A DNA stretch of 64,000 nt from Rhynchobatus australiae (lineage: Eukaryota): contig JAUZTB010000011.1 of NCBI GenBank assembly GCA_034780895.1, positions 36,248,245 to 36,312,244 of the forward strand, written 5' to 3'. Position 1 is the first letter of the stretch, and every line of letters starts with the position of its first letter. The notes under the pieces were generated by a model, which saw only the letters and a list, made by a program, of their open reading frames with translations, made no database searches and was not told the origin of the DNA. Both the position numbers and the translations under genes were made by a program. Shown one piece after another: positions 25,969 through 47,687 of this stretch.

Positions 25969-26069
25969 TTGACCTGAAGGACCAATGCAATTACACCAGC
26001 TGCCATTGGAGCTGCACTGGAAGTACCTTTGAAGGTTTTGGTGCATTCATTATCAAGTTCAGTTGTCAC
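25969..26069 (-). CDS. Convertase exon, 101 nt, catalytic Ser ([34 protein letters not shown])
   Basis: Acceptor ttgttttcaacag|GTG, donor AA|gtaagt. GTSxxAP motif; 101 nt as in furin/PCSK1. Confidence 0.96.
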
Positions 26070-46900: not shown

Positions 46901-47687
46901 CCCACTGATTTCAATGGGATTTCCCTCTGTTAGATAAGGAGGCCAAGGGGAAATCCAAGACTTGTCAATTATTTTGCTTTAGTTTAATGTTTTTAAATGC
47001 TTTTATGTGTTTTTAATTGACTATATTTATCTTTTAAAGCAATGAGTATTTATTATTTTTTTAATAATTTATTTTAACTTTAACAGATCTTATATCCCTC
47101 TGAATGTTAGAGGTATCTATAAACTGTTAAAATCCATGACAGTTGTAACAGAAGACAAAACCCAATCCCCCTCAAGGAGCATTGAGGGGCAGGACCTTTG
47201 TACTGTACTATCCAAAGCCAAGTTGCTGAATGGACCTTTGCACCTGACTCAAAGATGTGGGAGAGATTGCCCCTGGTGTGTGTGGGCAGAGGGCCTGGTC
47301 CAGCAAGATCTGTGCCTTAGGACATAAGTAGTACCTCTCCTTGTTGTGCTATACCACATGCCTACAGCTGAGAAATCTACATGTCTTATATGCTGTACAG
47401 TTCTTGCATCTATTTTGAGTTTGTGCAATCAGTCCACTTTCTATTCTTACCTATTAATATCAGTAAGTTTGCAACTGTTTTCCTTCCATTAATAAATATA
47501 ATAACTGCTAAGTCCTTTGCATTATTCTGCTAAAATGCATTTTTTTCTTCAAGATAGATTCTAAAGATATAATTTAATCTGAATAAATTAGTTGAAATAT
47601 TTACCCATTAGAGCGATCTACATTATTTGGAACTGGATCATGTTGAGGATCCAAAAGGTCATTGAAGTCAAAGCTGGCATTAGGATC
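25969..47687 (-). CDS. Spliced partial CDS (5 exons) of a divergent kexin/furin-like proprotein convertase (peptidase S8B catalytic domain); 5' and 3' exons not found
   Basis: join(47687-47605,42246-42158,32852-32680,31489-31250,26069-25969) translates without stops to [228 protein letters not shown](N). All junctions are GT-AG with matching phases 2,1,0,0. Introns are 5358, 9305, 1190 and 5180 nt. Confidence 0.95.
26870..27530 (-). mobile_element. Old L2-like LINE 3' remnant
   Basis: aaaatgtcccaaggcacttcacaggagtg...gagaggtttagggagagaattc, purine-rich antisense of an L2-type tail. Confidence 0.55.
27540..28470 (+). mobile_element. CR1-type LINE RT to 3' end, degenerate
   Basis: ORF 27509..27736 [27 protein letters not shown] resembles IYINDL...KFADDTKIG. 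Ends with tail ccatgattctatgatt. Confidence 0.8.
28908..28940 (+). repeat. (TG)n microsatellite
   Basis: Perfect TG run of about 16 units. Confidence 0.95.
29460..29712 (+). mobile_element. Young LTR (TG...CA, 253 bp), probably the 3' LTR of a Gypsy-type element
   Basis: Begins TGTGGTGACT and ends AGCCGCTACA (imperfect terminal inverted repeat). Preceded by a G run (PPT-like) next to a 100-N gap. CpG-rich compared with the flanks. Confidence 0.7.
29523..29627 (+). promoter_or_regulatory. Cluster of Pol II promoter motifs in the LTR: YY1 (CAAGATGGCG), E-box/CLEAR (GTCACGTGAC), CRE (TGACGTCA), TATA-like (TATTAAA)
   Basis: Exact motif matches at 29523-29532, 29580-29589, 29597-29604 and 29621-29627. 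Activity is untested. Confidence 0.5.
30150..30445 (-). mobile_element. Ancient Deu-domain-like SINE remnant
   Basis: aaggttccacaaa...aaatgaccaaataatctgttt...gttgaaggataa...caaaggatggc...agtgcaaaactctctaagtattgcactgaagt resembles the antisense of DeuSINE-type elements. Highly diverged. Confidence 0.45.
31250..31489 (-). CDS. Convertase exon, 240 nt, oxyanion-hole Asn ([17 protein letters not shown]...DGYVNSIYT...YSEAC...ELDL)
   Basis: Acceptor ttttttttaatgttacag|GGT, donor TTG|gtgagt. Lies inside ORF 31214..31498. Confidence 0.96.
32680..32852 (-). CDS. Convertase exon, 173 nt ([15 protein letters not shown]...[17 protein letters not shown]...GAEK)
   Basis: Acceptor ctgatttag|GT, donor AAG|gtaaga. 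Homologous to furin GVRMLDGEVTDAVEA...YSASWGPEDDGKTVDGP, with the same length. Not in the ORF track. Confidence 0.96.
33470..34230 (-). mobile_element. Rex1/Babar-type LINE 3' part (RT C-terminal region and tail)
   Basis: ORF 34083..34388 [40 protein letters not shown] is the characteristic Rex/Babar C-terminal block. Tail shared with 6280-6592 and 62889-63055. Confidence 0.85.
34290..35130 (+). mobile_element. CR1-type LINE RT/3' region, very degenerate
   Basis: [23 protein letters not shown] resembles IYINDL...SKFADDTKI. Confidence 0.6.
36060..39144 (+). mobile_element. Old CR1/L2-group LINE (endonuclease to RT), degenerate, split by a younger CR1
   Basis: Endonuclease-like and RT-like pieces ([38 protein letters not shown]). 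Same family at 44780-46900 (minus) and 58460-59257 (plus). Confidence 0.7.
37700..38380 (+). mobile_element. Young 5'-truncated CR1 LINE with (TCTATGT)n tail
   Basis: [25 protein letters not shown]...RELGLFSLE. Tail ttctatgttctatgttct; ATCAAGG on both sides (37693-37699 and 38381-38387). Confidence 0.9.
42158..42246 (-). CDS. Convertase exon, 89 nt, catalytic His ([29 protein letters not shown])
   Basis: Acceptor tttttcatgtttccaag|C, donor G|gtaat. Subtilase His motif; 89 nt matches the homologous furin/PCSK1 exon. Confidence 0.96.
42800..42978 (+). mobile_element. tRNA-derived V-SINE (5' part; runs into an N gap)
   Basis: A-box-like tagtgtagcggttagc, B-box gggttcaattcc, V-core tgtgtgggtttcctccaggtgctccagtttcctcccacat. 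Near-identical to 49378. Confidence 0.85.
43079..43435 (-). mobile_element. Young CR1 ORF2 reverse-transcriptase fragment with open frame
   Basis: [13 protein letters not shown]...[50 protein letters not shown]...WLVGRKQRV. Confidence 0.92.
43716..43942 (+). mobile_element. V-SINE (diverged) with CR1-type tail
   Basis: tgtgtggagtttgcccattctccc... and tail catggactcagtgggctgaagggcctctttccttgctgtatctctctatgact. Relatives at about 9720-9870, 14000-14230, 35865-36050 and 49790-50090. Confidence 0.7.
44780..46900 (-). mobile_element. Old CR1/L2-group LINE, degenerate, interrupted by Penelope
   Basis: Antisense similarity to 36060-39144 and 58460-59257. Confidence 0.55.
45380..45760 (-). mobile_element. 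Penelope-like element remnant (GIY-YIG endonuclease region)
   Basis: Minus strand reads [27 protein letters not shown], matching the PLE motif FTC.S.NLVYCI.C..C.LLY(IGET). Confidence 0.8.
47605..47687 (-). CDS. Convertase exon, 83 nt ([28 protein letters not shown])
   Basis: Acceptor ...ttttcacag|GAT, donor GG|gtaaat. Homologous to furin DPGASFDVNDQDPDP and PCSK1 DPEASYDFNDNDHDP. Not in the ORF track; read directly. Confidence 0.93.

Follow-up and report, generated by a model that had tools for sequence, protein, structure and literature searches.

An extra proprotein convertase in the ray Rhynchobatus australiae: a vertebrate member of an ancient lineage, very likely PCSKX

When considering a kexin-like catalytic domain in a vertebrate genome, one would look for its place among the seven vertebrate kexin-like convertases, a set that is treated as fixed. 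Does the gene described here belong to one of them, is it a relic in the course of decay, or does it stand apart? The stretch of Rhynchobatus australiae DNA that was analysed (hereafter, the window) comprises 64,000 nucleotides and corresponds to G000:C11:36,248,245-36,312,244. Here we argue that it lies within a vertebrate gene belonging to a convertase lineage of ancient origin, one that was thought to be missing from vertebrates and that is kept in the databases under misleading automatic names. The gene shows that an extra lineage is alive in fishes.

Five exons within a long gene

Five exons were mapped in the window (Table 1). Each of them is bordered by an AG acceptor and a GT donor (5/5), and the splice product of 686 nt contains 228 codons and no stops; 214 of its 228 residues are identical to those of protein P0001 of Pristis pectinata. 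A tblastn search of the window with P0001 matched only these five exons, and exon 4 matches furin at E 4e-17, so that the likeness to convertases is not a matter of chance. The preliminary description of this DNA had reported five intact exons with convertase motifs; indeed, these exons encode [25 protein letters not shown] as well as FKGTS, with no stop. The surrounding DNA, which had been described as decayed, consists in fact of introns with repeats and gaps. As also claimed, the exon sizes of 89, 173 and 101 nt follow the furin pattern, being the same as in the furin-like gene of this genome and unlike those of its PCSK7-like gene.

Table 1. Features of the window (positions are those within the window)
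Feature	Position	Strand	Content
Exon 1	47605..47687	minus	83 nt; P0001 residues 226-253; starts the catalytic-domain stretch in the window
Exon 2	42158..42246	minus	89 nt; HGTKCAGE; catalytic His codon 42245-42243
Exon 3	32680..32852	minus	173 nt; Lys at furin 230 (32832-32830), Arg at furin 257 (32751-32749); vicinal Cys pair, WGP, S1-pocket Asp
Exon 4	31250..31489	minus	240 nt; oxyanion Asn 31447-31445; DHCGADGY; clade-typical loop insertion at the end
Exon 5	25969..26069	minus	101 nt; FKGTS; Phe replaces furin His364 (26033-26031); catalytic Ser 26021-26019
Whole window	1..64000	minus	inside the gene; introns surround the five exons

The exons matching P0001 span ~526 kb of contig C11, from 36,615,092 down to 36,089,169, and the window represents the middle of this span. 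Further exons are found at G000:C11:36.089-36.238 Mb and at 36.322-36.615 Mb, among them a short one near 36,322,200, which the initial exon search with P0001 had missed, and, at 36.39 Mb, the exon that carries the catalytic Asp. The last two exons are on another contig (C135), some 55 C-terminal residues (~664-718) were not found in this genome, and, a short distance downstream, the last exon mapped on C11 is followed by a gap of 8.4 kb; hence, an error of placement during assembly would likely account for this.

[quoted passage not shown] In P0001, Pfam detects PF16470 (S8 prodomain), PF00082 (Peptidase_S8) and PF01483 (P domain) above cut-off, and the exons matching these domains were mapped in the Rhynchobatus genome. 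The predicted structure of P0001 (pLDDT 82.8) can be superimposed on furin with a TM score of 0.96 over the target and an rmsd of 1.8-1.9, and ends with a helical C-terminal tail; a search of the ESM Atlas with P0001 yielded generic convertase clusters only. The Asp-His-Ser triad, the oxyanion Asn and the acids of the S1, S2 (Asp154) and S4 pockets are all kept. The furin residue numbers are anchored on the furin alignment of exon 4. Judged by its domains, triad, oxyanion Asn and acidic S1 pocket, all read from sequence, the window gene is a kexin-like convertase (S8B).

Splicing can be judged from a 2,765-nt contig of run X1, from another, related species and presumed to derive from RNA, which omits exactly the 1,190-nt intron 31490-32679. 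The skipped intron ends with CT..AC on the plus strand, the loose ends of the contig run into exons 5 and 2, and X1 read depth is visible also in the bins of these two exons, so that the search for junctions called for in the preliminary description has found exons 2-3-4-5 joined, with exons 2 and 5 connected via the loose ends. Among the runs listed as containing the stretch, none is on record as RNA. Over exons 3 and 4, the window gene and X1 show 15 differences, of which the 11 listed fall into 9 codons, 3 of them synonymous and 6 non-synonymous (three in a variable loop), against ~94 synonymous and 317 non-synonymous sites; these are few differences from one related contig. That dN/dS in this comparison is not clearly below 1, together with the location of the last two exons on another contig and the missing ~55 residues, would fit a decaying or catalytically dead gene. 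However, the triad, the oxyanion Asn and the S1 acids are intact, the mapped exons are free of stops, exon 4 is 79% identical to its chimaera counterpart, full-length orthologues are found in at least 13 shark and ray clusters, the X1 contig is spliced, and the 8.4-kb gap opens just past the last mapped exon. We therefore regard decay as very improbable and treat the gene as intact.

Position among the convertases

The gene was placed with two trees, one of 72 rows (LG+G4) and one of 39 rows (mixture model, exact window splice product). In the first tree and in the AU tests, the window protein was assembled from tblastn hits and carried a 3-residue error at the border of exons 1 and 2; with the exact splice product in the mixture-model tree, the placement is unchanged. 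The branching within the clade that includes the window gene follows the order of species, that is, cnidarian, spiralian, ambulacrarian, amphioxus, tunicate, vertebrate, with moderate support at the deepest nodes. The supports (bootstrap/SH-aLRT) under LG+G4 are 96/94 for the vertebrates, 99/96 upon addition of the tunicate, 99/90 upon addition of amphioxus, and 97/85 for the whole clade; the respective values under the mixture model are 82/92, 97/95, 96/86 and 96/90. The furin-like (C79), PC4-like (C70), PC1-like and PC5-like (both C118), PC2-like (C76) and PC7-like (C73) genes of the same genome fall each within its own clade.

The central claim of the preliminary description, namely that this is an extra convertase which is none of furin and PCSK1/2/4/5/6/7, is borne out: both trees place the gene outside these groups, and the AU tests reject the nesting of the vertebrate clade with PC7, PC4, PC6, PC1 or PC2 (5/5). 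The tests were performed on a 35-row quick tree, with PCSK4 and PCSK7 chosen beforehand and PCSK6, PC1 and PC2 added after the trees had been seen. PCSK4 and PCSK7, which the preliminary description had singled out as possible hosts, are rejected with p of 1.6e-51 and 7.7e-5, respectively. The exon borders of PCSK7 also differ from those of the window gene, and the Cys-rich and membrane domains that would be expected under the PCSK4/furin option are absent. PCSK6 is rejected with p of 2.3e-46, the gene having no long Cys-rich tail of the PCSK5/PCSK6 kind, and PC1 and PC2 with p of 2.8e-6 and 6.5e-6, separate genes of both types being present.

Could a fast-evolving PCSK6, PCSK4 or PCSK7 nevertheless masquerade as a separate lineage? 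No PCSK6 catalytic exon is found among the 9 matches in the Rhynchobatus genome, and some teleost members are called 'PCSK4-like' by NCBI. Against such an origin, apart from the AU values, speak the separate PC4-like and PC7-like genes, the presence in Polyodon and Acipenser of both a PCSK6-like protein and a member of the window clade, and the branches of this clade, which are not long. We find this explanation hardly credible and retain the separate lineage.

To correct the preliminary description, the lineage very likely has a name already. A survey of convertases by Tao, Cheng, Song, Weisblat and Kuo (preprint of 2019, bioRxiv 10.1101/802215) described a group, PCSKX, that is separate from the PCSK1, PCSK2, PCSK7 and furin-like groups and includes Nematostella, spiralians, sea urchin and several copies of amphioxus, but no ecdysozoans. 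Our clade contains Nematostella, Crassostrea, Lottia and Branchiostoma floridae, all of which are species of that preprint; no Helobdella member was retrieved for it. The two share the kexin-like S8 and P domains and the cnidarian, spiralian, echinoderm and amphioxus make-up with no named ecdysozoan; they differ in that the clade here extends to a tunicate (Styela), to hagfish and to jawed fishes, which have two paralogues. The identification as PCSKX, based on species make-up and elimination, is very likely correct. An alternative is some other ancient clade, such as the one to which an orphan gene of Nematostella in the same preprint belongs: two Nematostella genes (P0336 and P0146) are placed in our clade or at its base, and the comparison with PCSKX is one of species make-up. 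However, PCSKX is the sole supported group there with such a make-up, which our clade matches, whereas cnidarians are the only animals from which the orphan is described (bioRxiv 10.1101/802215). This alternative appears improbable to us, and we use the name PCSKX with this proviso.

The only survey that found PCSKX reported its loss in vertebrates and mapped this loss to Olfactores, the vertebrates in its tree being human, chicken and Xenopus (bioRxiv 10.1101/802215). If the clade is PCSKX, as is very likely, its absence from vertebrates and tunicates would be contradicted by the sequences of 123 vertebrate rows in the clade (in the set used for scoring of pocket and prodomain) and of two Styela genes. 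The lineage has been hidden under automatic names, the members being called 'PC3-like endoprotease variant B', PCSK4-like, kpc-1, bli-like and NEC1-like.

The first of these names, as given automatically by NCBI, stems from a Hydra protein (P0342). The enzyme was reportedly cloned in the early 1990s, and its link to the ray gene, suggested in the preliminary description, has proved real: P0342 shares the CWGPKD and FKGTS motifs, belongs to the same clade, is 43% identical to P0001 over 654 columns and similarly has no membrane anchor. The ray protein differs from it by a spacer of ~50 residues after the prodomain site, by an acidic site without Arg at P4, and by CGADG in place of CNCDG. The papers listed under 'PC3-like endoprotease' deal with cnidarian venom or capsules, and no paper recognising a vertebrate member was found in a search that left subscription journals mostly outside its coverage. 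In one paper (PMC4992253), a cichlid 'PCSKL' (LOC102288865), an extra teleost PCSK-like gene without FU domains, is taken for a gene that is incomplete or for an error of assembly; it may correspond to the type B genes described below. A planarian 'PC-like' gene is reported in a further preprint (bioRxiv 10.64898/2026.10.10.758126). PMC8791634, PMC7067429 and PMC8553125, the last of which deals with mammals only, have no bearing on the window gene.

Paralogues, range and loss

A second gene of the Rhynchobatus genome (C2, 34.74-35.72 Mb) groups with the window gene in the vertebrate clade. The type of the window gene, type A, comprises chondrichthyans and a partial model of bowfin (98/89; 92/86), and has not been seen in teleosts among the matches listed; type B (100/100) comprises chondrichthyans, coelacanth, lungfish and all full-length models of ray-finned fishes. 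Bowfin and lungfish have two genes each, and the hagfish and the second lungfish model fall in neither type with support. Both paralogues of the ray carry an intron within the DDG codons that is absent from the furin-, PC1-, PC4-, PC5- and PC7-like genes of the same genome.

Single-exon class III POU genes, presumably POU3F3-like and POU3F2-like, are located at C11:36.018 Mb and C2:34.571 Mb, respectively, with their POU domains downstream of types A and B, by 71 kb and 173 kb from the last mapped exons and on the same strand. Moreover, one teleost type B model has a fused POU3F tail (a POU homeodomain) that resembles the POU gene of C2. The two remaining class III POU genes (C127 and C68) have no convertase near them among the matches listed, and a search for collagen IV revealed a pair on C11 and none on C2. 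Since a class III POU gene follows each paralogue downstream, on different contigs, the two are likely ohnologues, that is, a pair stemming from a whole-genome duplication, as judged from this one neighbour family.

The taxonomic range was assessed in protein databases, not by genome searches, from the best 120 of 139, the best 120 of 1,608 and the best 120 of 817 shorter proteins, plus 150 cluster representatives, 30 of which were looked up by name. Among the matches listed, the vertebrate members come from sharks, rays, a chimaera, hagfish (Myxine, Eptatretus), bichir, sturgeons, gar, bowfin, many teleosts, lungfish and coelacanth; the other chordates and the ambulacrarians are represented by Styela (two genes), Branchiostoma, Ptychodera and echinoderms, and more distant animals by Crassostrea, Lottia, Elysia, Owenia, Macrostomum, Nematostella, Hydra and corals. 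No named ecdysozoan was found in the clade, with 30 of the unnamed representatives looked up, and no lamprey, cypriniform or catfish member among the protein matches listed. An ancient lineage kept in cartilaginous fish, as surmised before, is thus only part of the picture: the clade does extend from cnidarians to fishes, but its vertebrate range is far wider, from hagfish to coelacanth. Similarly, the suggested loss in mammals agrees with none having been seen there, but the loss looks tetrapod-wide. There are no tetrapods among the best 120 of 1,608 proteins, and the tetrapod rows in the best 120 of 139 and of 817 have their nearest relatives in furin, PC1, PC5 or PC6. Accordingly to these protein searches, tetrapods likely lost the lineage.

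Substrate pocket and predicted specificity

The ray gene shares with furin (PCSK3) the fold, the triad, the S1 and S4 acids and the exon sizes, but belongs to a different clade, has one extra intron, and shows Glu230 replaced by Lys and Glu257 by Arg, with Asp191, Arg193 and His364 replaced as well. The states at these sites were scored by tree group (18 type A proteins of cartilaginous fishes; 175 proteins outside the clade); rows unmatched by the patterns were dropped, and kin share states, so that the following counts are not independent. A basic residue occupies position 230 in 15 of the 16 type A proteins scored and position 257 in 15 of 17. The prodomain site could be located in 13 of the 18 proteins and reads [DE]-[VIL]-E-K-R (H-D-V-E-K-R in the Rhynchobatus genome), with an acidic P3, an acidic P5 and a non-basic P4 in 13/13. 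Outside the clade, position 257 is basic in 4/131, P5 is acidic in 1/81 and P4 is basic in 72/81. In type B of bony fishes, 257 is basic in 84/93 and P3 is acidic in 62/65, while Arg is found at P4 in 65/65; the invertebrate members scorable for both pocket and site (n=5; 1/3 versus 1/2) show no pattern. The match between pocket and prodomain goes back to one or two evolutionary events, which enter these counts many times over. A Phe that replaces furin His364 is a mark of the clade: it is found in 16/17 type A, 94/94 bony type B and 37/38 invertebrate members, as compared to 18/145 of the others.

In a modelling study (PMC2820236), a preference for basic P5/P6 is ascribed to the acids at furin 230 and 257, position 257 being tied to P4-P6, not to P3, and for none of the seven mammalian enzymes that it discusses are both positions described as basic. 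With the two acids turned into Lys and Arg, and with its own acidic site lacking the P4 Arg, the window gene is predicted to have a distinct specificity; the dropped rows, the states shared by kin and the patternless invertebrate members keep this a prediction. Cleavage after Arg is expected, since the gene retains the triad, the oxyanion Asn and the acids of S1, S2 and S4. Cutting at R-X-K-R is possible as well, as the S4 residues Glu236, Asp264 and Tyr308 persist (type A: Glu236 in 16/16, acidic 264 in 17/17) and the type B sites invariably have Arg at P4.

These same S4 residues and type B sites would suit the view that the gene encodes a broadly expressed furin/PC7-like enzyme with the ordinary R-X-K/R-R specificity, the reversed charges only tuning the release of its own prodomain; leech pcskx, too, is expressed broadly, not in a neuroendocrine manner (bioRxiv 10.1101/802215). 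We consider this view unlikely, albeit to be reckoned with. A membrane anchor and a Cys-rich domain are absent, the doubly basic pocket of type A is not described for the mammalian enzymes discussed in PMC2820236, and the own site has no P4 Arg in any of the 13 cases. In seven type A proteins examined for it (7/7), a C-terminal membrane segment is absent, the last 200 residues contain 1-2 Cys, and the highest C-terminal 19-residue hydropathy is 0.84-1.14, as compared to 3.13 in gecko PCSK4.

The reading that we prefer with fair confidence is that of the catalytic core of an intact kexin-like convertase gene, of a clade that is ancient, extends from cnidarians to fishes and is very likely PCSKX. 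The gene is one of two copies in jawed fishes that likely stem from whole-genome duplication, and its product would act as a soluble, self-activating secretory protease that cuts after Lys-Arg and likely favours acidic over basic upstream residues. By analogy with the family, a signal peptide would bring the convertase into the ER, where the prodomain would chaperone its folding and then be removed at H-D-V-E-K-R/D (Arg113 of P0001), and the Asp211-His254-Ser437 triad with Asn355 would cleave after Arg with the aid of a calcium-dependent S1 pocket. Having neither a membrane anchor nor a Cys-rich domain, the enzyme would remain soluble, as PC1 and PC2 do. It shares with PC1/3 and PC2 the soluble layout, the lack of acids at 230 and 257 and a helical tail, which in PC1 is amphipathic; unlike in these enzymes, the charges are reversed, not neutral, and, unlike in PC2, the oxyanion Asn is kept. 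Lys290 and Arg317 (furin Glu230 and Glu257) are predicted to disfavour polybasic furin sites and to favour acidic P3/P5. From this charge preference, precursors of the hormone, neuropeptide or granin type with acid-flanked dibasic sites emerge as the somewhat favoured candidate substrates.

More tentatively, and with slightly less than even confidence, the following scenario can be envisaged: early vertebrates would have possessed PCSKX as an eighth kexin-like convertase, handed down from the common ancestor of cnidarians and bilaterians, doubled beside POU3F and lost entirely at the origin of tetrapods, with the charge-reversed shark and ray copy reading Lys-Arg sites that are flanked by acids and avoided by furin. 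Mammal-based cleavage rules would, as a result, miss a set of processed fish peptides. A charge-reversed convertase would alter the peptide predictions for fish, and the reversal of both distal pocket acids represents a natural test of how convertases read their substrates. Since no cypriniform member is found among the matches listed, work on zebrafish may have missed the lineage; medaka has a type B member (P0302), which is open to knockout.

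Protein features of the two paralogues

Directly ahead of the active-site WGP, the protein of the window gene, a type A paralogue, carries a vicinal pair of cysteines that is conserved in most chordate and ambulacrarian members of the clade and could form a vicinal disulfide or act as a redox switch. The spacer that follows the prodomain site (the predicted self-cleavage site at Arg113 of the reference protein P0001 from Pristis pectinata) is modeled with low confidence and contains a second basic cluster; long spacers are found repeatedly, in most bilaterian members. In the type B proteins of sharks and rays, CASE replaces CAGE, Phe stands where furin has Tyr308, and position 264 is neutral; the S4 pocket of these proteins may be different. 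Most of their database models lack the N-terminus.

Locations of features in the window and elsewhere in the genome assembly (G000)
Feature	Location	Strand	Remark
Second paralogue (type B)	G000:C2:34,744,262-35,723,579 (loci L011-L015, L037-L039)		span about 980 kb
Vicinal Cys pair	window 32761-32766	-	
Spacer, prodomain site to catalytic domain	L003-L004 (G000:C11:36.42-36.44 Mb)		about 50 residues
Final two exons of window gene	G000:C135:13,771,932-13,773,975 (L010)	+	contig other than C11
Reverse transcriptase fragment, intron 1	window 42860-43429	-	
High-copy repeats	window about 28.6-29.7, 33.0-34.7, 37.5-38.6 kb		
Open reading stretch	window 38749-39144	+	about 130 codons, continues into assembly gap

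Clade members in the databases

Five database proteins (P0121, P0122, P0123, P0331 and P0037) contain tandem convertase domains or fused neighbors (a POU homeodomain, other domains) and are probably fused gene models. The matches listed in the protein searches include members from characiforms and milkfish and a fragment from electric eel, and none from cypriniforms, catfish or lamprey; further losses in these three groups are possible.

Gene content and assembly

The placement of the final two exons of the window gene on contig C135 is probably a scaffolding error. The same contig carries a furin-like P-domain exon (L036; 21,517,600-21,517,770), apart from the furin-like gene on contig C79. 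None of the 9 matches in the genome is a PCSK6 catalytic exon, which reflects either an assembly gap or a genuine loss. Within the window itself, the reverse transcriptase fragment is presumably of the LINE type.
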